Virus genome (UHGV): UHGV-2031204
From: a virus
DNA length: 64,000 nucleotides
Reading direction: 5' to 3' (one strand)
The notes below the pieces were generated by a model, which was not told where the DNA came from, did no database searches, and saw nothing but the letters and a program-made list of their open reading frames with translations. This document shows, piece by piece, positions 3,178-61,748 of the stretch. The translations under genes were made by a program, and so were the position numbers. The first letter of the stretch is position 1. The number at the start of each line of letters is the position of its first letter.

Positions 3178-3839
3178 TCGTTTATAGTGAGGTCTTGTCA
3201 AAAGCCCCTCGGTTTTTACAAACTCACTTTATGTATAACGCACGACACTATTGGGGCTTTAAAGCCCCTTACTCCGAAGATTGGGAAGTTGTGGAAAAGT
3301 TAGCATTTGTGTTTTCTCTTTCGTTGTTGTGGGAGATCATTGCACTATACAACGCAGGTTGTGATATCCCGGAGAACGGCTTTTTCCAACAACACCTATT
3401 CCAAAAATTCACAGCATCGGTAGAAAATCATGAAGTACGCAAGGAGTGTCTCGGCTACGCAGAGCATTCTGAAGAGTTGAAAAAGATTTCCAAATTAGTT
3501 ATCACGCGGGCATGGGCTGAATTCGAAACTTACCCCGAAAAAATAATTTGGTTTAATCGTGAACAGTTTATTAAAGAGGCAGCCAGTCAACATCCCGTTC
3601 GATTAATCGTGTTAAAGCCATCCGATCTTGCCTTACGCCACATCTATTCCTCTCCAGAGGAAATCGTTTTTTCCTCTGGAACAACAGATTACGGTATTTT
3701 TAAACAAGGCGATTCTTGGATTCTTCCACACGATTTAGACGGGTATTTGCTCAGCAGCGATCAAATACATTCGGGTTATGACTCACAGGTGAAGGAGTTT
3801 ACACTCGATCCTTTTTTCGCTAAAAATATTCTTAGATAG
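3171..3839 (+). CDS. hypothetical protein (start may be ATG 3231)
   Basis: Long ORF in the co-directional block. Confidence 0.45.
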   Translation: MLIVYSEVLSKAPRFLQTHFMYNARHYWGFKAPYSEDWEVVEKLAFVFSLSLLWEIIALYNAGCDIPENGFFQQHLFQKFTASVENHEVRKECLGYAEHSEELKKISKLVITRAWAEFETYPEKIIWFNREQFIKEAASQHPVRLIVLKPSDLALRHIYSSPEEIVFSSGTTDYGIFKQGDSWILPHDLDGYLLSSDQIHSGYDSQVKEFTLDPFFAKNILR

Positions 3840-49927: not shown

Positions 49928-52444
49928 ATGGAGAACTGGCTGGTCGCCCACGCCATCCAAAAAGCGTGGCAGCGTCCATATCTTGACGGGGTGCTCAACA
50001 TCGCACCCTTCCGTCTTTCACCCAAGACCGGGGCGATCGGCTTTTTCAAACACGGTCGGATTCCGGTCGCTTTACCGAAAGAGAATTCGTGGTGGCACGC
50101 CTATGCGGTGGACAAACTTCACGTAAACTGGGGGAATCTTGCTATCCCCCTAAACCGTTGGAAGAAACTGTCCACTTGCGTAAACGGCTTTAGCACCTGG
50201 ATTCAGGTCTACAACGAAAACGGAACGACGATTCCTTCCGAATACGTTTATTTCTACCGTAACAGTGCGGGAATGGTTTACATGGCTATTCCGCAATCCG
50301 ATCGGTATGCCTGGTTGGACAACGATCCTTGTTACCTGCGAATTTATCCTGGTTACAACGGGGGTGAAAACGCGCCGTACATCAACCCGACGACCGTCGA
50401 GTTTTATTCACCGCCGAATCGTGAACAGGTCCAAAGGGTCATCGATCGGTTTAATTACCTGAAACAACAAAACAAAGGGTACGTTGAGTTCTGGTTAAAC
50501 GGTGAACTTATCGACTCCCCGAAACCTGCGGATATTAAAACGTGGGATGATATCGACATCCGCGTCGACGGTCGTGTTCGTCGTGTTGTAGAGTTTCGCT
50601 GTGGCGACTTACAAACGTTTATGTCCAAACTGGATAGCAAACGAAAATACTTACTCCATATCCCGAAAAAAGATGGCATCTGGATTTTTAACAACGATGC
50701 GGAGATCCAGCTTTATTGGAAAGGTCGGGGACGTTATTACCATCGTCACCGCCACCAGGCGTTACGCCAGCTAACATGGAACGACTTATCAATCCCGACT
50801 GAACGCATTGCAAAATATCGCAACGTTTTTACCGGTTCAATCACCGACCTAGACGATCTGGTCATCAGGCTGATTATTCGCGATGACTATCTGGATATTG
50901 CGCCGTTGTTTAACTCATCGCACATACACGATTTATACCGATTATCAGATGACCTGATTATCGACGCGATGATCGGTGCGAATGCGAACGTAACAGAGTG
51001 GCAGGCTGCTAATCTGGAACAAGCTGCTTTTAACCGACTGGCAGCGGCTAAGCTTGAGAATATTACGCGCGATTTGTGTACTGATGCCTACGGTTACAAC
51101 GCTGTAAGTCGTTATGCTGCAGATACCCCTCAGCGTCTTACGTTAACGGAAGGAGGGTACCGCGCCACCTTACCTGCGTTATTGGCAACCAACTCGACTG
51201 TGTACGAGTACGACGGCGATGGTTTGCTGTTAGAGGCGCATCAAAACCGTGGTTACGACGTATACCAAGCACGCAACCCCAACACCAGAATTATCGAGGC
51301 GATTGAAGGCGACAAAGCCGAGACAGTAACTATCGTTGATAACGCCGACGATTTCGAGATTCAGGAAGGTCAAAACGTTAACTTGTGGCTGCGTAAGGTT
51401 ATTGATGATATTCCACGAGACGAATATCTGAAGGCAGTGGAAGGGACGGATTACACCCGTGAAGGTAATAGCATTACCTGGACTGTGGACCGTACTCGTC
51501 GTCACCCTACGGTGATTTACGACGATCGCCATCTGTATTTCGAAATCGATGTGGCAGTCAGAGAAGGGGAGATTCGTATTCCTATTCTGGCCCGAAACCA
51601 AGAAGGTAAACAACGCACACTCTGGATTCCGATGGAAACCGTCGAAGTGTGGTTAAACGGGCACCCTCTGGTACACGGTATCGATTATCATGTCATTTGG
51701 CCAGAAATCGTTGTAGTCTGTAAAGCGTGGATGAGTGATTCCGATGAAAACCGCATCGCAGTGCGTTGTCGTGGGGTCACTGGTGAACTTCGTATTCCGA
51801 AACACGGTTTCGTCTCGAGTGGCCTGTTATCAAATAACAACCAATTTGATTGTCGCGACGACAAAGTTATTCGTGTCGTTGCTGGCGGTTCCTTGCTATT
51901 GCGCGACGAGGTAGTGTTCCGCGAGGACAACACGGTAGGTGTCAAAATTGTTGATGATGGTTATCCCTACTCTGTCGACGACCCTACAATACCGTTGCGT
52001 ACACTGGTAACGGGGAACACGTATGCGCTCAGGGACGTAGCTCGTGACCTGGATAGCCGTGTAGAAAATTACATGACTAACTGGTTCCCGACACCGCCTC
52101 CACAGAACCCGGTGCCTTTACCGCACTTGTATCACCTTTATTCACCTACGTTGAATAAAATCCTGTGGGACTACTTACAGGGTGTTCTCACCCTCGTGGA
52201 AGACGATCCAGATTATCGTATTTCAACAACACAGTTGGATGAGATTATGGAGCGGTATAAAGACCTGCTTCCGTTCGACCCCGCGTACATCGGTTACGAT
52301 AAAGCGTTTGTCAAGCTCCATCCGCATGTGAAATACCAAACCGTGGAAGTTAACGAACTCGGGTTCGCGTTTTTGGATCGCGTTAACGAGCGGTATCTGA
52401 ATGGTGAAGTTCAGCTGAACCAGTATCTGAAAATCAAGGGTTAA
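49928..52444 (+). CDS. hypothetical large structural protein
   Basis: 838-aa ORF upstream of the terminase. Confidence 0.55.
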   Translation: MENWLVAHAIQKAWQRPYLDGVLNIAPFRLSPKTGAIGFFKHGRIPVALPKENSWWHAYAVDKLHVNWGNLAIPLNRWKKLSTCVNGFSTWIQVYNENGTTIPSEYVYFYRNSAGMVYMAIPQSDRYAWLDNDPCYLRIYPGYNGGENAPYINPTTVEFYSPPNREQVQRVIDRFNYLKQQNKGYVEFWLNGELIDSPKPADIKTWDDIDIRVDGRVRRVVEFRCGDLQTFMSKLDSKRKYLLHIPKKDGIWIFNNDAEIQLYWKGRGRYYHRHRHQALRQLTWNDLSIPTERIAKYRNVFTGSITDLDDLVIRLIIRDDYLDIAPLFNSSHIHDLYRLSDDLIIDAMIGANANVTEWQAANLEQAAFNRLAAAKLENITRDLCTDAYGYNAVSRYAADTPQRLTLTEGGYRATLPALLATNSTVYEYDGDGLLLEAHQNRGYDVYQARNPNTRIIEAIEGDKAETVTIVDNADDFEIQEGQNVNLWLRKVIDDIPRDEYLKAVEGTDYTREGNSITWTVDRTRRHPTVIYDDRHLYFEIDVAVREGEIRIPILARNQEGKQRTLWIPMETVEVWLNGHPLVHGIDYHVIWPEIVVVCKAWMSDSDENRIAVRCRGVTGELRIPKHGFVSSGLLSNNNQFDCRDDKVIRVVAGGSLLLRDEVVFREDNTVGVKIVDDGYPYSVDDPTIPLRTLVTGNTYALRDVARDLDSRVENYMTNWFPTPPPQNPVPLPHLYHLYSPTLNKILWDYLQGVLTLVEDDPDYRISTTQLDEIMERYKDLLPFDPAYIGYDKAFVKLHPHVKYQTVEVNELGFAFLDRVNERYLNGEVQLNQYLKIKG

Positions 52445-52446
52445 TC

Positions 52447-54087
52447 ATGGCCTTAACAACCGACATTATTAATAAGGATCGCGGGTTCCGTGTATGGCGT
52501 CCTGAAGAACTCTATGCGCCGGAACGCCCAACCGGATACGTACCGAACCCGAAAGATCTGATCGTTAACGATATCACCTCCGGTTTCGATATCGTCATAA
52601 GCGTTAACTACGCCAAACCATCGTGGGAAACCGAACCGTGGGGCGGTGTAGGGGTGGCTAATCAAGACGGTCGTCTGAACGGGCACTACCCACTGCGTAG
52701 CGATAAATATCGCGTCTACGTGGATTCTACGAAGCTCCCGGCAACGATGGTGTTAGATAACGCCCTCACCTTTGAAGGACCGGATGTGGACGGGGTGCGC
52801 ATTTTCCGAGGCAGTAAAGTTGACGACAGTGCGGAAATACTCTCCGGCTACTACAAAGACGGTAAATTGAAATACACTTACTTACCGGTCCAGACGATTT
52901 CTGTCGAAGGTGCAGAGCGTGTCGTTAAACAAACGTTACCTGGCGCTTGCTTAGCTGAGGTCGAGAACGGTGAAGAATGTATGTTCGCTGTTTACTCCGA
53001 CGTCGGTAACGTGGTACAAATCGGTCACGCGCACATTATCAAAACGAACCTGGTAATGCCGCAAGAAACACCAGCTCGTACTGTGTTGGGTATTAAGTTA
53101 GTGTCGCCGTTCTTGGTAGACAACGACGGCACCACACTGACGCTGCCGATCAACATGCCAATCGAATCTATACCGCTTTGGTGTGATGTTGTTTACAGCG
53201 ATGGCACAAAACGTCTACCTATCGACCAAGCTCGTGTGAAATTCAACGGATTACGTAACGCAGGTTCACACGACACGTTCTACATCGCTTCTAACTCAGG
53301 CAACACGCTGCCATGCGTACTGAGCTATAAGTTATCCAGAGGTGAAACTTACGGGGGTACCGATGTCGTAGGTGACACCATTGTGAAAAACTATACGGCG
53401 GTAACAGAGCAGGTCGACGGTGCCTACAGCATGAAACTTTTCGTTGTGCCGAGATGGCTGGATGCCACACGCGGTTATCGTCTGGACTTCTTGCTGTATA
53501 ACCTGACACGCGGTAAAGTTTACGATGCAACCGCGCACGTTAACTACACCACGGGCACGACCTTCGATCCGTTACTGATGGGTGTTAAACAACGCCTTAA
53601 CGTTCAGGTCGATATCAGTAAAGTAGACAGTAAATTCCGTGCGTTTATTCAGTCTCAGTCATTCGCTATTACGCTTGTGAACCCAGGTAACGAACTGAAC
53701 TCGAACTTCATTCTGGAATACCTCCCAGACGGTATGAAGTATGGGGAAAACGTGTGGGCGGAATTTAAATACTCCAACGTCAATTATTCTGAAATCGACG
53801 TCAGTAACAAAGTGGCCTCTAAGGCAGAATGGTTGAAGCTGTTGTACGAACCGATTTATCCGTTGTACGACCGCCGTAATGAATCAGAGCCACCTGAACC
53901 AACACACTTCGAAATCCACGTCGGGGGTAAAGTTTACACCTATAGCGTAGATGAGTGGTTGGATAAAAAGGTTATCGACTACCGCGTACCGCTGGACGCT
54001 CCGCTAGTGATTCGTTGGATACGTCGCACACCAACAGATACGTTAAACTTAGCCGCGTCGCCAATGTTGGCGCACCACATCGAATAA
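52447..54087 (+). CDS. hypothetical structural protein
   Basis: 546-aa ORF upstream of the terminase. Confidence 0.55.
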   Translation: MALTTDIINKDRGFRVWRPEELYAPERPTGYVPNPKDLIVNDITSGFDIVISVNYAKPSWETEPWGGVGVANQDGRLNGHYPLRSDKYRVYVDSTKLPATMVLDNALTFEGPDVDGVRIFRGSKVDDSAEILSGYYKDGKLKYTYLPVQTISVEGAERVVKQTLPGACLAEVENGEECMFAVYSDVGNVVQIGHAHIIKTNLVMPQETPARTVLGIKLVSPFLVDNDGTTLTLPINMPIESIPLWCDVVYSDGTKRLPIDQARVKFNGLRNAGSHDTFYIASNSGNTLPCVLSYKLSRGETYGGTDVVGDTIVKNYTAVTEQVDGAYSMKLFVVPRWLDATRGYRLDFLLYNLTRGKVYDATAHVNYTTGTTFDPLLMGVKQRLNVQVDISKVDSKFRAFIQSQSFAITLVNPGNELNSNFILEYLPDGMKYGENVWAEFKYSNVNYSEIDVSNKVASKAEWLKLLYEPIYPLYDRRNESEPPEPTHFEIHVGGKVYTYSVDEWLDKKVIDYRVPLDAPLVIRWIRRTPTDTLNLAASPMLAHHIE

Positions 54088-54097
54088 ATATAACAAG

Positions 54098-54121
54098 CCT
54101 CCTACCCGAAAGGGTAGGAGG
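54098..54121 (+). promoter_or_regulatory. intergenic stem-loop without U-tract, overlapping RBS of terminase gene
   Basis: CCTCCTACCC/GGGTAGGAGG stem, GAAA loop, then GAGGAG and ATG 54134. Confidence 0.4.
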
Positions 54122-54133
54122 TGAGGAGTCTGT

Positions 54134-56242
54134 ATGATACTACGTGAATCGGACTGGCGTTATTATCCAGGCGCTATTGTTGACGATAAAACCACAAACA
54201 AATCGTTTATCAAGTTTGCAAATATCCTAAAAAAGCTGGGTGTAAAGCACTATTATATTCATCTCGCCTTACATAACCCTTTACTGCAAGGGGTCGATCC
54301 TTTTGACGAAAACCTAACGGACGAACAGAAAGCGTACATCGCCATCGAGTGTGCTGAAAACCCTTGGTACTGGTTTCGAGAGTGCGTCAGGGTACCTGCG
54401 GACGGTATGAAATACGGGTCGCCGTTCCGTATCGACCGTGGTAACTTTTCGATGTATTGGATTTTCTTCAACAACATCGACGCCGCCGTCGAATTCCTCC
54501 GTCAGCACGGTAAAACCGTCGGGATGAGCGGATTACTGCTGTGGTTAATTCGGTTTCTGGAAAACTCTCGTACGATTCTTATCACAAAAGGACCGGCACT
54601 GCGTGAAGAAACCATTAACAAACTTAAGCAACTACGTAACGGTCTACCGTCGTACTTGTGGCCAGCACATCCAGACGATCCAGATAACCGCGAAACTTTT
54701 GCGTGTTTAGCCCAGGGTAACAAACTGATTACGGGCATCGGCCAAAACGACCCAGAATCAGCTAACGGTATCGGTCGTGGACTCACCGCTGGTCGTCTGT
54801 TCTCGGACGAAGGACCCTTTACCAAAAACGTACACCACATTCTACCGGCAGCGCTGGCATCCGGTACAGCTGCACGTCGTATTAACGAAGCGGAAGGTGT
54901 TCCTTACGGCAACGTATTCGCAACAACCCCGGGTGACTTAGCGACGGAAGAAGGCAAGTACATGTACGAGCTGATGACGTCAGGGATTATGTGGGATGAG
55001 CGCTATATCGACATTCCAACCCGTAAACAGCTCATTGACATCATCCGTTCTAACTCCACGGCAGAAGTCCCACGTATCATGTTCTACGTGAAGTACAACC
55101 ACCGCCAGCTCGGTACCAGCGATGAGCAATTAGCGGCAATGATTGCGAACGCCAAAGGTACTCCTGACCAGATCCGTCGTGACTTCGGGGGTGAATGGAC
55201 GACCGGTGGCTTGAACAAGCCGTTCTCAGCGGAAGATGCAGATCGTATGAATGCTTCCCGTATGCGTGCTGTGTTTAAAGATATTTCACCACAAAACTAC
55301 GTTACCGACTGGTACTACACCGAAGAGGAGATGATGACGAAGCTCAAAGACCGACACGTCATCGGGTTGGATACCTCTGAGGCTGTGGGTCGAGACGCGA
55401 TCGCCATGTCTATTGTTAACTCTGTGACCGCAGAGTACGCAGGTAAATTAACCGTTAACGAATCTAACGTTATCTCTTTCGCGATTCATTTAGCGGATTT
55501 TATGGTGCGATATCCTAACACGGTACTAATCCTGGAACGGCGGTCTACTGGCTCGTCTGTGGCTGATGCGATTATCCTGCAGTTACAGTCTCGTGTCACG
55601 GACTTACATCGTCGTTTATTTGTGAGAATCACTCAGGACTACTCACGTACGGACGATCTCTACAAAGAGTATCACCGTGGGCCTATTGGTAACGCTGAGA
55701 AGTTCTGGAATAAATTCCGTAAATATATCGGTTTCTCAACCGACCAGGAAAAACGTCGTAAACTGTACGGTGAGGTATTCACCACGGCGTTGCGCTTATC
55801 CGCGGATAAACTCCGTTGCGGAGAACTCATCGACCAGATACTTAACCTCGTGGAGAAAAATGGTCGTATTGACCACAAAGCTTCAGGTCATGACGACCTC
55901 GTGATTTCTTGGTTACTTGCGATGTGGTTATTGCTGCTTGGGAATAACCTGGGGCATTATGAAATCAACAACAGTCGATTGATGATGCGCAATCGTAATT
56001 TAGTCGAAAATCGTGAAGGGGTGGATGAGGAATTACAACTCGAGGAGGAGGCGCGACAGCAGGAACTGATGGGGGAAATTGAGCGTCTTGTGCGAACCAC
56101 AAACGGGTTATTAGACCCGGTTCAAGCAATGGCTGCTCGTAACCGTCTCCAGTCCCTCATTGCTCAACTTAACACTGATACACAAAACGTGGCGTCAATG
56201 GAAAGCTTGAGAGAGCTTATCCAACGCCAGAGGATGAAGTGA
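54134..56242 (+). CDS. terminase large subunit
   Basis: P-loop RQHGKTVG; nuclease-type motifs GLDTSEAVGRDAIA and HKASGHDDLVISWLLAMW. Confidence 0.7.
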   Translation: MILRESDWRYYPGAIVDDKTTNKSFIKFANILKKLGVKHYYIHLALHNPLLQGVDPFDENLTDEQKAYIAIECAENPWYWFRECVRVPADGMKYGSPFRIDRGNFSMYWIFFNNIDAAVEFLRQHGKTVGMSGLLLWLIRFLENSRTILITKGPALREETINKLKQLRNGLPSYLWPAHPDDPDNRETFACLAQGNKLITGIGQNDPESANGIGRGLTAGRLFSDEGPFTKNVHHILPAALASGTAARRINEAEGVPYGNVFATTPGDLATEEGKYMYELMTSGIMWDERYIDIPTRKQLIDIIRSNSTAEVPRIMFYVKYNHRQLGTSDEQLAAMIANAKGTPDQIRRDFGGEWTTGGLNKPFSAEDADRMNASRMRAVFKDISPQNYVTDWYYTEEEMMTKLKDRHVIGLDTSEAVGRDAIAMSIVNSVTAEYAGKLTVNESNVISFAIHLADFMVRYPNTVLILERRSTGSSVADAIILQLQSRVTDLHRRLFVRITQDYSRTDDLYKEYHRGPIGNAEKFWNKFRKYIGFSTDQEKRRKLYGEVFTTALRLSADKLRCGELIDQILNLVEKNGRIDHKASGHDDLVISWLLAMWLLLLGNNLGHYEINNSRLMMRNRNLVENREGVDEELQLEEEARQQELMGEIERLVRTTNGLLDPVQAMAARNRLQSLIAQLNTDTQNVASMESLRELIQRQRMK

Positions 56243-56478
56243 TGGCTCCAATTTACTATTTACTTGTGTTCTTTTCGTGGATAGCGACGTATAAAATGAT
56301 CCGCGAGAGTTACCAAGCGATAAAACAATACGGACGTTCGCAAGGTTTCCCACTACGAAAAACACGGTATGTACAGGCATTTGCAGTATTTGGCCTGATG
56401 GTAGCAGGTTCGTCAGCTACCTATGCGCTAAATATGGTCTACTCTATACACCTCGTGGTAATGTCAGGGCCCCATTGA
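56239..56478 (+). CDS. small membrane protein (two predicted helices)
   Basis: ATG overlaps the terminase stop; hydrophobic segments YYLLVFFSWIA and FAVFGLMVAGSSATYALNMV. Confidence 0.4.
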   Translation: MMAPIYYLLVFFSWIATYKMIRESYQAIKQYGRSQGFPLRKTRYVQAFAVFGLMVAGSSATYALNMVYSIHLVVMSGPH

Positions 56479-57983: not shown

Positions 57984-59108
57984 ATGAGAAATTACTTACG
58001 TAAACCCGTTTGGCACAGAATGCTGCGCGAAGGTACCATCGACCGAAATCAAAACGTCAAAATGTGGGTTCTTCCACACGGCGTAATTTGTGATTTAGTT
58101 CGTGTCGGTGGTATGGACATTTTGCGCAACGGTACCTACGATGCGGTCAACTCGTTTCTTGCACGCGAATTGGCAGAGGCAGGTTTACATGGCGAAATTC
58201 TGTTTTACACCACACGCGTTATTCCACAAACCCTGTCGAAATGGTTAACGTACTGGTTGTCTGGTGATCCTGACGCATCGGACCCAGAACTCAACTCAGT
58301 AACAATTACAACGTTGGGACAATACCCAACGAAACCGCTACCATTTCAGGTAAACGTAGTAGAGCCGTTAATTGTAAAAGCAGGTGACGTCTTCGACACG
58401 ATTAAAGCTAAATCCAGAAACCAAGCGGTTTCACAGTTCCTCGTAGAAACTGAAAATGAGGTGTTTCGCCTGGAACCCGTCCGTAAAACGGATGCCACGT
58501 TACTGGCAGTCACCGACTACGGTGTGGTGTGCCGTTCTACAGAAGGTCACACTTTCCTGTGTACAATTTTGTCTCGTCGTATACAAGCCCAGTTAGCGCA
58601 CTACAAACTGAGTTTGAACGACATCATCGGTACTACGTTACGCATCGAATACACGATGTACACCGATGGCAACAGGTTGTGTAACTACAAGTCACCTATC
58701 GCGTATCGAGCACTGGCGTTAGACAGTCTCGGTGATTGGGTTTCAACGACATACGATGGGCCTTCACCGTTTAAAACAATCCCGACACAACGGCCTGCGT
58801 TGCTGACGGTTACACGCTGCAATCGTGCTGAAATCTACGAGGAAAATGGGGTGATTTATGGCTTAGAACGTGAGACAGGATTAACGCTGTTTCGTTTCCG
58901 CCGAGGCCCAGAATACGGGCGTTACGCTGCCGTTTTCGAACGGGAAGGGGAACAAGAAACCTGGCTATTCGATTCCGATTTCTCGGTTGACGTTATCGAC
59001 CCTGAAGGGTTTATTGCTTCGGTCGGAAATCAGGTGTTCTACGCCACCGGTTACAGTTTGGTCGATGTGAAACTGTACTATCCGTCAAAAGAACTGACGA
59101 CTCTGTAA
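57984..59108 (+). CDS. hypothetical protein
   Basis: AAAGGAG RBS; strong terminator follows. Confidence 0.55.
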   Translation: MRNYLRKPVWHRMLREGTIDRNQNVKMWVLPHGVICDLVRVGGMDILRNGTYDAVNSFLARELAEAGLHGEILFYTTRVIPQTLSKWLTYWLSGDPDASDPELNSVTITTLGQYPTKPLPFQVNVVEPLIVKAGDVFDTIKAKSRNQAVSQFLVETENEVFRLEPVRKTDATLLAVTDYGVVCRSTEGHTFLCTILSRRIQAQLAHYKLSLNDIIGTTLRIEYTMYTDGNRLCNYKSPIAYRALALDSLGDWVSTTYDGPSPFKTIPTQRPALLTVTRCNRAEIYEENGVIYGLERETGLTLFRFRRGPEYGRYAAVFEREGEQETWLFDSDFSVDVIDPEGFIASVGNQVFYATGYSLVDVKLYYPSKELTTL

Positions 59109-59118
59109 AAAATATTCT

Positions 59119-59156
59119 GGGGAGACTTCGGTCTCCCCCGTTTTTATTTTTTTTTG
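59119..59156 (+). terminator. rho-independent terminator
   Basis: GGGGAGAC/GTCTCCCC stem, TTCG loop, long T-run. Confidence 0.8.
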
Positions 59157-59609
59157 CCCAAAATCAAAAAACGCGATGAGAGCGATTCTAACGCATTTTT
59201 CTTCCAGGTGGTACGTTCGTACCCCTTACCCACGTTTATCTCTCCAGAGAGCTTCCTACGAAGAATTTGAGGGTGTTTTGGTTGTGGGTTTTGAATTTAT
59301 TTTCACTCAACGCCATGAAACCGCGATTTTGTCGTTCGTGCTGTCACGCCAACCCCTATCCCTGGGTGGGACGAAAACCCACCCCATCGTAAAACGCTCT
59401 AAAACGCTTTTTGACGCAAAAATCTTCTCAAGGGGTACACTTGGGTACCCGAACCCCGTTTAATTCGTTACAGCTCGATTGAGAGCGTCTGAGGGGCATT
59501 CCCCTCGACCAGTTCCACCCCACCCTCGGGTCGGCGAACCGGCCGCCGCGACGATCAAAAAAACATTCACGCTTCGCGTACTAGCGGATCAGCTGGATTG
59601 ATCAACTTA

Positions 59610-59940
59610 CTGAATCTTCACACACTGAAGATTCAGGTTGAGTAGTTCTCTAGCTTTGGTTTTTTGATCTTTTAAAATTTTTAATACTCTTCGAGAGACT
59701 TAGTGTCTCTCGAATCGATCTTAAATTTTTAACTCTTTCAAAAATCTGATCTCAAGATCTCTTCCTTATACGCGTGTGCGCACGCACACGTATAGTATAA
59801 TATATTTATTTATAAATATATTATTCCTTTAGGATCAAAATAATAATACCTTTAGGTATTATTTAATTATATATTTTAATATATATTATATATAAATATA
59901 TATAAAACGCGCGCGATCCTTATTATGAGATCTGATCTCG
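59610..59940. repeat. repeat-rich AT-rich intergenic core (candidate origin/regulatory hub)
   Basis: IR 59610-59636 (11-bp arms); direct repeats GATCTTTTAAAATTTTTAATACTCTT 59666-59691 and GATCTTAAATTTTTAACTCTTT 59717-59737 flanking IR 59690-59714; quasi-palindrome 59767-59794; ~90% AT 59795-59907 with IR 59842-59863; CGCGCGCG 59908-59915. Confidence 0.5.
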
Positions 59941-60120
59941 CTATGACCCCCCTGAGGGGGTAGGGATCGGTGAGCGGTATTTTCCAGAAAAAACCGAAAA
60001 TCGTACCCGGGGTAATTCGCCAGGGTAAAATCCCCACCTGGGGGATCGGGTAGGGGTCTACCCCGAACACCTGACCGAGGGGTGTAAAACCCATTCCCCT
60101 TTTTCGAACGTTAAAACCCT

Positions 60121-60760
60121 ATGGTATGTTCGGAGGATTTGCGTGGGATGATTTACAAATCCAACCACGAAGATTTTTCGGAGTTCAGGAGTTTACTGCT
60201 CACAGCTCAAACACGATTTCTGTCTGCGAAGATTCAGCAGAGCTCGAAGCCCCCTGACCGGATGTTGGTTTGGGGGTTGTTTTTTCGAGTGCATGGAATT
60301 TATTTCGCCGTGTACTGGGAAAAACAAAACGTTCAGCCTAACACTGGAGTTTGTTTTACTATGGGGTTTGAAAATCGATTTGCCAATCGAACTTACCCCG
60401 AGGGATTTTTGGAATCCCCAGAGTTCAGGTGCTCGGTACCGTTTCCCCGACTTACGAGTGTTGGGGAGCCCGCGCTATCAGTGACGCGTGGACCACATGA
60501 GAAAATCCGAGGGAACCGTGGCAGCCTCTGGGAGCGACGTTGGCGAAAGGTCCGTAGAACTTACCTGCGGGCAGCCGACGGTGGGATACGCTCCCAGAGG
60601 TGCGGCCAGAATGCGAATTACGACGTTGCGTCGAATGACCCTGCTCCAGGTAGCGCTGGCAGTGTGATGTCCTCTAGCTTGACGGCTCGCAAAGACGAGA
60701 GGGGTGCGTACTCCCGTTGAGAAACGCCGGTACGCAGCTGAATTATTTTTTTTTACAGCG
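60121..60760 (+). ncRNA. candidate structured noncoding RNA (unclassified)
   Basis: GC-rich, no RBS; perfect 12-bp long-range helix 60525-60536/60589-60600; several local hairpins; terminator-like hairpin 60705-60736 plus T-run 60745-60754; the overlapping 199-codon ORF uses CGA/AGG/GGG codons, whereas sampled neighbouring genes read mostly CGT/CGC for Arg. Confidence 0.3.
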
Positions 60761-60802
60761 TTTCCTGTTGGTGTGACACAAACCACGGCAGGAGATTTTA
60801 AT

Positions 60803-61165
60803 ATGGATTCCAAAAACACCACTAACGTGGAATTGGATGTTCAGTACAGGCTCGATGAGTTGGCAGCTCTGTTAAAAGCCCCGGAGGACTGGGGATGCAC
60901 GGAGCCAGCGTTACTTGATTTGATCAAGAGCGTGCGGATTTACCAACCCGTCGAGATTTACATCACGGTAGTTGTGGAAGTTCACGATGGTTATTGCGTG
61001 GAACACATCCCTAGCCCTATTGCGCATTATCCGAGCTATCGAGAGTGTCTCCTGGTAGCCGTTCGTGAAGGCTTGGCTCGTGCGATTCGTGAACATGTTA
61101 CGCGATGCACGAACCCGATGGCAGCTGTTGATCAGGTGGACAGCAATGAGTTAGGAATTCTGTGA
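60803..61165 (+). CDS. hypothetical protein, coupled to HslV-like gene
   Basis: GGCAGGAG RBS before ATG 60803; stop overlaps downstream start. Confidence 0.5.
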   Translation: MDSKNTTNVELDVQYRLDELAALLKAPEDWGCTEPALLDLIKSVRIYQPVEIYITVVVEVHDGYCVEHIPSPIAHYPSYRECLLVAVREGLARAIREHVTRCTNPMAAVDQVDSNELGIL

Positions 61166-61665
61166 TGACCACGATTGTTTTTGACGGAAAGACGTTAGCT
61201 TGCGACGGTCAAGTCACCGTGGAAGAGCGTAGTGCTGCCACGCAATACCGTAAGATCCACACGCCGCCCGAGGGTACGACGTGGAATCTTTTGGGTGAAG
61301 ACGTAAAAGCGTTTGGTTTGGCAGGCGATGTCGCCGCATTGCAATCTGTGCGTCAAGAACTCACGCTTGAACGTTTCGGTGGTATCGAACGGGGTGGGGT
61401 TCGTTTTGAAACGACGTATCCCGAACAGATTGATTTTATCGTACTTGCTGTTTTGACAGACGGGCGCGTTATCGACGCCTCGAAATGCAAAGACAACAAA
61501 TACGCCAGTTACGTGTTTGTAGAGCCACCGTATGCGATAGGCTCAGGTGCACACTATGCCCTGGGTGCGTTAGGCGCAGGCGTTGACGCCCCCACTGCGG
61601 TGGAAGTGGCGAAACGTTACGACCTGTACAGCGGTGGACAAACGCAATCACTTAAGCTGTTTTGA
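61165..61665 (+). CDS. HslV/proteasome-beta-like N-terminal-nucleophile peptidase
   Basis: [16 protein letters not shown] parallels HslV [30 protein letters not shown] parallels [23 protein letters not shown] parallels IAIGSGGPYAQAA. Confidence 0.6.
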   Translation: [166 protein letters not shown]

Positions 61666-61672
61666 TGTATTA

Positions 61673-61748
61673 GGGGGTGTAGCACAATTGGTAGTGCAGC
61701 GGTCTCCAAAACCGAAGGTTGGGAGTTCGAAACTTCCCGCCCCCGCCA
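61673..61748 (+). tRNA. tRNA-Trp (anticodon CCA)
   Basis: Manual cloverleaf: D-stem GCAC/GTGC with G18 G19, anticodon loop CTCCAAA (U33, CCA, A37), T-arm GGGAG-TTCGAAA-CTTCC, acceptor GGGGTG with 1:72 mismatch; 3' end uncertain by a few nt. Confidence 0.75.

Follow-up and report, generated by a model that had tools for sequence, protein, structure and literature searches.

Introduction

Bacteria and phages have few large RNAs with complex folds, and those with a known function are either ribozymes, such as the group I and group II introns and RNase P, or the cores of ribonucleoproteins (RNPs), such as tmRNA. ROOL, GOLLD, and OLE form RNA-only assemblies, and for GOLLD and ROOL we know of no function or protein partner. 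Here, we analyzed a 64,000-nucleotide (nt) stretch of the virus genome UHGV-2031204 (the window), in which an earlier note had proposed positions 60,121 to 60,802 as a candidate large structured non-coding RNA (ncRNA) of no classified family, and we found that this segment encodes an RNA of ~ 620 nt whose elaborate fold is conserved. The source of the window is a jumbo phage akin to Salmonella phage SPN3US (Seoulvirus) and to the Erwinia phages of Erskinevirus and Wellingtonvirus, with terminase and structural genes (50000-56260) that are ~ 73-75% identical to those of the SPN3US, Erskinevirus, and Wellingtonvirus phages. GOLLD has been described in phage, near a tRNA gene, with a conserved 3′ half and a variable 5′ half (PMC12286853). 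The RNA described here is likewise phage-encoded, lies near a tRNA gene, and combines a conserved 3′ half with a variable 5′ half.

Results

A conserved fold in the plus-strand RNA

Relatives of the segment were gathered through the flanking proteins, through a DNA pattern of the most conserved stretch filtered with nhmmer, and from GenBank. This resulted in 27 distinct homologous segments in four clades, namely the window's own (A), Wellingtonvirus (B), Erskinevirus (C), and Seoulvirus (D), with 86-99% identity inside clade A and only ~ 45-55% between clades. The distance from a GATCCTTATTA box to the 3′ core of the RNA was 776-849 nt in all 27 sequences.

A structure-blind MAFFT alignment of 17 sequences, folded with RNAalifold, produced a consensus of 42 pairs; compensatory double changes were seen in 15 of these, and CCGU/ACGG and GGC/GCC were recovered as long-range helices. 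Independent minimum free energy (MFE) folds of members of the four clades led to the same arrangement of arms. Two covariance models, R1 and R2, were then built from clade A only, with the helices specified by us, and used to align the other clades, with the 3′ partners slid by 1-3 columns as a control. For R1, covering the 3′ domain (60494-60748), 97.6% of 1141 cells were paired compared to 32-50% in the slid controls, and 24 of 61 pairs carried double changes; for R2, covering the central domain (60212-60524), the figures were 95.7% against 38-55%, with double changes in 42 of 74 pairs. Over both alignments, G-U cells outnumbered A-C cells 243 to 13, and the plus strand folded at -244.3 kcal/mol (z = -4.7 against shuffles), 48 kcal/mol better than the minus strand at -195.8 kcal/mol (z = -2.0), indicating that the selected structure belongs to the plus-strand RNA and not to the DNA or to an opposite transcript. 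The segment therefore encodes an RNA in which some 20 helices are maintained through compensatory changes, with a variable 5′ and central half and a nearly invariant 3′ half. Its elements are as follows, with double changes counted across clades.

60123-60745 (+), structured ncRNA gene of ~ 620 nt; both ends are predicted, and the covariation-supported helices span 60223-60739
60131-60180 (+), 5′ hairpin, from the MFE fold; variable between clades
60223-27 with 60237-41 (+), helix H2; double changes in 3/5 pairs (R2, alignment A9)
60251-60275 (+), helix H3; double changes in 7/9 pairs (R2, alignment A9)
60279-60325 (+), helix H4, closed by pairing of a U-run with an A-run; double changes in 6/17 pairs; inverted repeat I1
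60326-60357 (+), hairpin H5, with the near-invariant loop CCUAACA at 60337-60343
60363-60399 (+), hairpin H6, peripheral and replaceable; double changes in 4/5 pairs
60402-60418 (+), hairpin H7, peripheral and replaceable; double changes in 5/7 pairs
60424-60430 (+), conserved linker UUCAGGU
60432-60436 with 60507-60511 (+), long-range helix X, CUCGG with CCGAG, enclosing H9 and H10
60443-60467 (+), H9, inside helix X
60470-60491 (+), H10, inside helix X
60516-60685 (+), multi-helix junction of the 3′ domain; closing helices CCGU/ACGG (60516-19 with 60682-85) and GGC/GCC (60520-22 with 60605-07)
60525-36 with 60589-600 (+), 12-bp helix arm, a perfect inverted repeat; 10/12 pairs covary across clades
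60538-44 with 60574-80 and 60550-54 with 60568-72 (+), inner arm of the 12-bp helix; 6/7 and 3/5 pairs covary
60557-60566 (+), loop GAACUUACCU on the inner arm; the same in clades A, C, and D
60621-60633 (+), small hairpin CGACG-UUG-CGUCG; 100% paired, with A-U changed to G-U between clades
60678-60741 (+), nearly invariant 3′ core, comprising CUUG, ACGG, a hairpin, AGGGGUG, the terminal hairpin, and GCUGA; 79-89% identity in 40 GenBank phage records
60686-60699 (+), hairpin CUCG-CAAAGA-CGAG, part of the 3′ core
60705-60736 (+), terminal hairpin with a GNRA loop at 60719-60722; double changes in 5/14 pairs and one-sided (G-U) changes in 4/14
60737-60741 (+), GCUGA, the last invariant element

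The 12-bp helix, which the earlier note had pointed out, is formed by CCTCTGGGAGCG (60525-60536) and CGCTCCCAGAGG (60589-60600), which are 100% complementary and separated by 52 nt; by our estimate, ~ 0.004 inverted repeats of this length are expected by chance in a 680-nt segment. The segment is also GC-rich, as the note had stated (0.60 at 60400-60699 compared to ~ 0.46-0.49 around it), and the hairpin that it placed at 60705-60736 is present as an 8-bp stem, a 2x2 internal loop, a 4-bp stem, and a GAGA loop.

In the 5′ half, the pattern is one of exchanged sequence and retained pairing. The apex of the 5′ hairpin differs between two subclades and still pairs (GGAU.../...AUCC and GGUUG/CAACC), and a hairpin also directly follows TATG in the other clades. 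The stem of H5 covaries (CAG/CUG, CGG/CUG, and CAA/UUG) around a loop that is kept in Machinavirus as well, and H6 and H7 are swapped in sequence among subclades with their pairing retained. Helix X, read directly in the four clades as CUCGG/CCGAG, AUCUGGC/GCCGGGU, ACUCGGU/ACCGAGU, and CUUGUC/GACAAG, showed double changes in 3/5 pairs with 100% of cells paired in alignment A9, which contains no Wellingtonvirus sequence, and was also recovered by an independent column scan. RNAalifold had proposed a long-range pairing of AGCUCG (60241-46) with the same CCGAG; this was rejected in favor of CUCGG (60432-36), since only CUCGG covaries in the four clades. In the 3′ domain, the junction was found by MAFFT and RNAalifold, is 98-100% paired in 22 distinct sequences, and also holds one or two variable hairpins. 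The terminal loop reads GAGA, GUGA, GCGA, or GGGA depending on the clade, so that its middle bases vary on a covarying stem, a pattern typical of RNA tertiary structure.

A scan of column pairs for pseudoknots recovered the known helices and one ambiguous alternative, 60428-60433 with the strands of the terminal hairpin, supported by too few lineages to be relied on. Comparison of 60427-60436 with 60702-60712 showed that, in each clade, UUCAGG is followed by a sequence similar to the 5′ strand of the terminal hairpin, and in Seoulvirus GGUACUC occurs at the equivalents of both places; this sequence could pair with the 3′ strand of the terminal hairpin as an alternative, a suggestion drawn from too few lineages to be firm. 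A search for target sites in the window that could pair with the invariant loops (AGGTAAGTTC and GTGTTAGG) gave no more than expected by chance.

The segment does not code for protein

The longest frame in the segment (ORF199) runs from an ATG at 60121 to a stop at 60720, encodes 199 amino acids (aa), and has no Shine-Dalgarno-like sequence upstream. Its arginine codons are unusual, with CGA 8, AGG 4, and AGA 1 among 23 (57%) compared to 38 of 199 (19%) for these three codons in seven neighboring genes, which read mostly CGT/CGC, and a frame of 114 aa overlaps it on the minus strand (60478-60822). The earlier note had pointed to all of these features. ORF199 is intact only in the window and in a 98%-identical relative (L067) and is broken in 25 of 26 relatives, including those of 91-97% identity; even the 97%-identical L052 has it split. 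When compared with relatives of 85-91% identity, the region of the ORF carries nine indels, most of which shift the frame (1, 1, 1, 5, 1, 1, 1, 2, and 9 nt). Substitutions at the first, second, and third codon positions were 22/20/24, 24/21/25, and 26/20/25 in three genome pairs, whereas the HslV-like gene downstream, in the same pairs, showed 1/0/22, 2/0/20, and 3/0/27 with zero gaps. The extent of the minus-strand ORF also differs among relatives, and neither frame, nor any of the small flanking ORFs, matched Pfam, PHROG, or NCBIfam. The segment is thus non-coding for protein: codon positions are flat, frames are shifted, and it is the helices that covary. Coding-type conservation, which the earlier note had named as the finding that would speak against its proposal, is thus the opposite of what the relatives show.

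Several GenBank records place 'hypothetical proteins' over the RNA, among them Huxley gp278 (L129 7632-8045) and Asesino gp288 and gp289 (L002 3720-4163), and these annotations are probably spurious.

Distribution among SPN3US-like jumbo phages

Beyond the four clades, Machinavirus forms a fifth group in which the 3′ domain was found at 74-84 bits in Huxley, Caitlin, and pEa_SNUABM_9. In Caitlin and pEa_SNUABM_9, H2-H5 are present, including the CCUAACA loop, and only 41-49 nt occupy the place where clade A has H6-H10. In Derbicusvirus (CR5, Derbicus, and Phobos), the gap is only ~ 550 nt and gave no match to the models. The RNA is therefore carried by at least five genus-level groups of SPN3US-like jumbo phages, and in all five it stands at the same place, after an AT-rich, GATC-dense tract and before the region of the HslV-like gene and tRNA-Trp. 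The gene that follows changes from clade to clade and the RNA stays. Across groups, the 3′ domain was found everywhere at 65-112 bits, and the central domain at 13-53 bits or not at all. Within clade A, 60440-60745 is almost invariant and the protein gene after it varies freely; the RNA is under stronger purifying selection than the flanking genes.

Kwan, Wellington, and one metagenomic relative carry an HNH endonuclease ORF of 169 aa (L012 1960-2469, which is Kwan gp291; also L023 and L016) within the peripheral hairpin that immediately precedes the invariant core, and the 97%-identical L024 lacks this ORF. Such polymorphism in presence is typical of homing endonucleases. Its nesting in a peripheral hairpin indicates that a large insertion can be accommodated in this part of the fold, as in the loops of introns. 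A hairpin with a T-run lies 5′ of the HNH ORF and might cut the RNA short in those phages.

When 5,426 complete E. coli genomes were searched with the RNA by BLAST, the only match was a related jumbo phage recorded as a circular 221.9-kb 'plasmid' of strain 98232, from human urine in Egypt (L140, NZ_CP173450.1, 148302-155911), and no similar host RNA was present. This phage belongs to the window's clade and is 87% identical over the RNA, and the record suggests E. coli as host together with a carrier or pseudolysogenic state. A clade-A copy was also present on a contig binned in a Bacillota metagenome-assembled genome (L122, JAEWFE010000254.1), which is most likely a misbinned phage fragment.

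Promoter-like motifs and the ends of the RNA

A motif consisting of a T-run followed by TTTAC(A/G)-N14-T(A/G)TG matches the window exactly at 4 sites, where 0.79 would be expected, and 0 of 100 shuffles reached this number. With one variant included, the sites (8935, 17586, 21335, 42465, and 60752, all on the plus strand) lie 25-40 nt upstream of start codons. We regard this motif, derived from few sites by pattern search, as a candidate phage promoter. In phiKZ, late promoters have the form T(-3)ATG(+1), and an AT-rich element lies near -24 in middle promoters (PMC7598289). Two copies of the motif flank the RNA.

60100-60128 (+), promoter-like motif before the RNA, with a T-run at 60100-60104 and two TATG copies at 60120-60123 and 60125-60128
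60746-60775 (+), T-run followed by TTTACA-N14-TGTG, the promoter-like motif of the gene at 60803; outside the conserved fold

The first copy aligns with TTTACA-N14-TATGCGAATAG in Seoulvirus and Erskinevirus and with TTTTCAAAACG...CCTATGGCG in Wellingtonvirus, and the predicted start of the RNA would accordingly be G60123 or G60128, exactly at the ATG of ORF199. Upstream of this point, the ~ 190-nt spacer of clade A contains many large indels and the remaining clades differ in sequence, in agreement with a 5′ boundary near 60120.

At the 3′ end, the earlier note had seen the RNA's own terminator in the last hairpin and the T-run behind it, and this part of its proposal found no support. The T-run (60746-60754) starts 9 nt past the stem, a terminator scan made no call at 60705-60754, and the T-run is absent from Seoulvirus, Erskinevirus, and Machinavirus, which have AAAATTT or AAAT instead. 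The promoter-like motif at 60752-60775 overlaps the T-run, which explains why the latter could be read as a terminator tail; more probably, the T-run forms the upstream portion of the promoter of the following gene. A promoter-like motif stands between the RNA and the next gene in all of the aligned clades, SPAsTU excepted.

Genomic setting

The RNA segment lies within a 1.7-kb stretch without credible genes (59109-60802), and its neighbors are as follows.

57984-59108 (+), phrog_8136 gene, the upstream neighbor
60803-61165 (+), ORF of 120 aa, downstream in the same orientation as the RNA
61162-61665 (+), HslV-like peptidase gene, downstream in the same orientation as the RNA
61673-61748 (+), tRNA-Trp, ~ 930 nt 3′ of the RNA

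Large structured RNAs often lie beside phage tRNA genes, as the earlier note had remarked; here, the link to tRNA-Trp is one of position only. The gap is unannotated in SPN3US, SPLA3, and the majority of other GenBank records, and was also left blank by PGAP, the NCBI pipeline, on the circular 'plasmid' of E. coli 98232. Searches of Pfam, PHROGs, and NCBIfam recognized only the HslV-like and phrog_8136 neighbors. The latter is named 'putative DNA ligase' in two records, and a PDB sequence search with it gave no meaningful match, so that the neighboring genes offered no functional clue.

Between the phrog_8136 gene and the RNA, 59551-59950 is the densest GATC cluster in the window, with 11 sites in 400 nt compared to a window mean of ~ 1.2. 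It includes an AT-rich tract (59760-59905, GC 0.23) that contains small palindromes (AATACCTTTAGGTATT) and is bracketed by alternating CG/TG runs and inverted AGGATC/GATCCT. This layout is conserved in all clades (GATCCTTATTAnGAGATC), the pairing of tract and RNA is kept in the four clades compared, and the tract may be a replication origin or another DNA-level site. The GC skew follows gene orientation here and is uninformative on an origin.

Assemblies tend to break in this tract (~ 59790-59940). The IMG/VR contigs L003, L005, L007, and L008 end or begin there, as do the GenBank records of SPN3US, Proteus phage 7, EC001, Lh1B, and JN03, and the circular replicon of E. coli 98232 reads through it. 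These breaks are probably an assembly or coverage artefact of AT-rich repeats and not a physical end.

The upstream half of the gap (59109-59760) looks non-coding too, and a 510-nt gene that Seoulvirus has at this place gave no tblastn match in the window. It contains the terminator of the upstream gene (59119-59138), which shows compensatory changes in relatives, conserved hairpins at 59610-59637 and 59691-59714, and an island (59518-59579) with 84-88% identity in Erskinevirus and Kwan. In Erskinevirus and Seoulvirus (L002 ~ 3440-3720 and L020 ~ 290-550), a further promoter-like motif lies between the AT tract and the promoter of the RNA, followed by two GC-rich hairpins with T-runs, which may represent one or two ~ 100-nt small RNAs. 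In the window's clade, the equivalent place (59915-60100) is taken by a different spacer, GC-rich and ~ 190 nt long.

Search for known RNA classes

A scan of the whole window with Rfam 15 at the gathering threshold returned tRNA-Trp only, and permissive scans of 59000-61000 (E up to 10) and of five homologous loci (E up to 5) gave chance-level matches only, so that the RNA matches no family in any clade and stands as a large structured ncRNA outside the classified families, as had been proposed. RNase P RNA and tmRNA were rejected on the Rfam result and because ARAGORN found no tmRNA. The covariance model of GOLLD (RF01998) had no match in 59000-61000 at E up to 10 or in the five loci at E up to 5, and that of ROOL (RF03087) had none in six members. 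A group I intron was rejected for want of an Intron_gpI match and of exon context, and a group II intron on its 2x2 internal loop, the lack of an AGC triad, a domain VI, and an interrupted gene, and the empty Rfam result. By eye, no hammerhead or other small-ribozyme core, 11-nt GNRA receptor (CCUAAG/UAUGG), or C/D-type K-turn fits across clades. The available literature searched on SPN3US, phiEaH2, Chimalliviridae, and jumbo-phage RNAs yielded no description of this element.

Discussion

Given a conserved, non-coding RNA of this size, the question is how it is made and in what form it acts. We consider it somewhat probable, from the arrangement of motifs and fold, that the RNA has a TATG-type promoter of its own, is transcribed by the RNA polymerase that the phage itself encodes, and acts as a stand-alone folded RNA. 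Transcription would run rightward from the motif at 60100-60128, the product would act, much like ROOL and GOLLD, as a free-standing folded molecule with or without protein partners, and the invariant loops together with the GNRA loop would make tertiary, intermolecular, or target contacts. This is suggested by the promoter-like motif on each side of the RNA and by the exchange of the following gene between clades, through which the RNA does not change, as well as by a scale and a junction-rich design like those of ribozymes, RNP cores, and the self-assembling ROOL and GOLLD. The RNA appears to be neither an mRNA nor a simple leader or primer.

Several points weigh against this interpretation. 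The window's own motif before the RNA is a weak, degenerate copy (TTTTTCGA for TTTTTACA; TTTTTCGAACGTTAAAACCCTATGG, 60100-60124), and both ends of the RNA are placed from sequence alone. There is no conserved intrinsic terminator 3′ of the RNA among the clades compared, so that, barring processing, transcripts of Seoulvirus and Erskinevirus would extend into the HslV-like gene, as expected of a leader. The double changes counted over R1 and R2 together, in 66 of 135 pairs, overstate the number of independent events, since alignment to the covariance models favors the modeled pairs and no more than five or six lineages are represented. The likeness to ROOL and GOLLD is one of size, ornateness, and context rather than of homology, and any activity, partner, or target of the RNA is putative.

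The alternative that retains the most weight, if still an unlikely one, is that the RNA is a cis-acting leader or processing platform of the downstream transcript, comprising the 120-aa ORF, the HslV-like peptidase gene, and tRNA-Trp, and controls the expression, stability, or processing of that transcript or its export from the phage nucleus. In every clade, the RNA is oriented with these genes and immediately precedes them, clades other than A and B lack a conserved hairpin-plus-U terminator after it, and the co-directional tRNA means that transcripts of the region need processing in any case. Against this, the promoter-like motif that separates the RNA from the next gene in the aligned clades other than SPAsTU and the turnover of that gene between clades both argue for an independent unit; furthermore, ~ 600 nt with some 20 helices far exceeds known bacterial leaders, and the conserved core stops 60 nt before the start codon, leaving the ribosome-binding site uninvolved.

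A slimmer chance attaches to an origin of replication at 59551-59950, with the RNA priming or regulating initiation as ColE1 RNA II and the R-loops of T4 do. The dense GATC sites, the low GC content, and the bracketing repeats of the tract count in favor of this interpretation, its pairing with the RNA is conserved in the four clades compared, and the length of the RNA is near the 555 nt of RNA II. This is countered by the direction of transcription, which leads away from the AT tract and ends ~ 850 nt from it, and by the fold, since primer RNAs fold simply, without multi-junction cores or invariant loops; the GC skew shows no switch beyond gene orientation, and an origin in this phage group is itself putative.

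Still further from likely is a relic or unusual self-splicing intron or mobile ribozyme of group II-like kind, in which the terminal hairpin would correspond to domain V and the endonuclease ORF would sit at the place of domain IV. The size fits that of ORF-less group II introns, the terminal hairpin has ~ 34 nt, a GNRA loop, and an interruption at mid-stem, and in Kwan and Wellington the HNH ORF occupies a peripheral hairpin 5′ of the core while the 97%-identical L024 lacks it. There is, in contrast, no host gene and there are no exons around the RNA, its 5′ end is not GUGYG in all clades, a 2x2 internal loop replaces the 2-nt bulge, the AGC triad and domain VI are missing, and an extra hairpin and a closing helix separate the positions of 'IV' and 'V'. 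The Rfam group I and group II models were empty at E up to 5-10 in six members, and free-standing HNH genes often insert beside conserved sequences. Finally, that ORF199 or the 114-codon minus-strand ORF is a real protein gene has a negligible probability, as the unbroken ATG-started frame of 199 codons in the window and L067 is set against its disruption in 91-97%-identical relatives, substitutions spread flat over codon positions, the missing ribosome-binding site, the atypical codon usage, the lack of any family match, and the inconstant extent of the minus-strand ORF.

The RNA could represent a new functional class, a large catalytic or self-assembling RNA made by nucleus-forming jumbo phages of Enterobacterales with their own RNA polymerase. 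We raise this tentatively, as an outcome with a realistic but clearly less than even chance. Such an RNA might serve as a ribozyme or as an RNA-only or RNP particle in the infection cycle, for example in the handling of RNA or translation components or in defense or counter-defense. Nothing comparable is known to us for Chimalliviridae. The RNA occurs in phages that build a nucleus-like compartment and use their own RNA polymerases, and because large complex RNAs are rare and the known ones have proved remarkable, a new class of ~ 600 nt is a concrete target for structural and functional work. SPN3US, which carries the RNA, has an established genetic system based on amber mutants (PMC5105663), and deletion, RNA-seq, and cryo-EM therefore look feasible. 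The finding also corrects annotation, as several GenBank records call probably spurious 'hypothetical proteins' over the RNA, such as Huxley gp278.

Comparison with known systems

Like ColE1 RNA II and the origin transcripts of T4, the RNA would be a long non-coding transcript beside an AT-rich, GATC-rich tract; in contrast to them, its transcription leads away from the AT-rich tract, and its fold shows much greater complexity and conservation. With domains IV-V of group II introns it shares the size of an ORF-less intron, a ~ 34-nt GNRA hairpin near the 3′ end, and, in some members of the family, an endonuclease ORF in the preceding hairpin; it differs in having no exons, domain VI, AGC triad, or 2-nt bulge, and in the extra helices between the hairpins. 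The flanking motif resembles phiKZ-type promoters in its T-rich element at ~ -23 to -18 and the TATG at the predicted start, with the difference that the motif of this phage group comes from pattern search and its start sites are predicted.

The closest likeness is to GOLLD and ROOL, which are also phage-encoded, several hundred nt long, and often found near tRNA genes, with many covarying helices and multi-helix junctions. The RNA described here matches neither Rfam model in sequence or structure, its helices are laid out differently, and its hosts are nucleus-forming jumbo phages of Enterobacterales; homo-oligomeric, RNA-only nanocages are a trait of GOLLD and ROOL and would be hypothetical for this RNA. 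It represents a new RNA family, not homologous to any catalogued one, that in kind belongs with the large ornate RNAs of phages.

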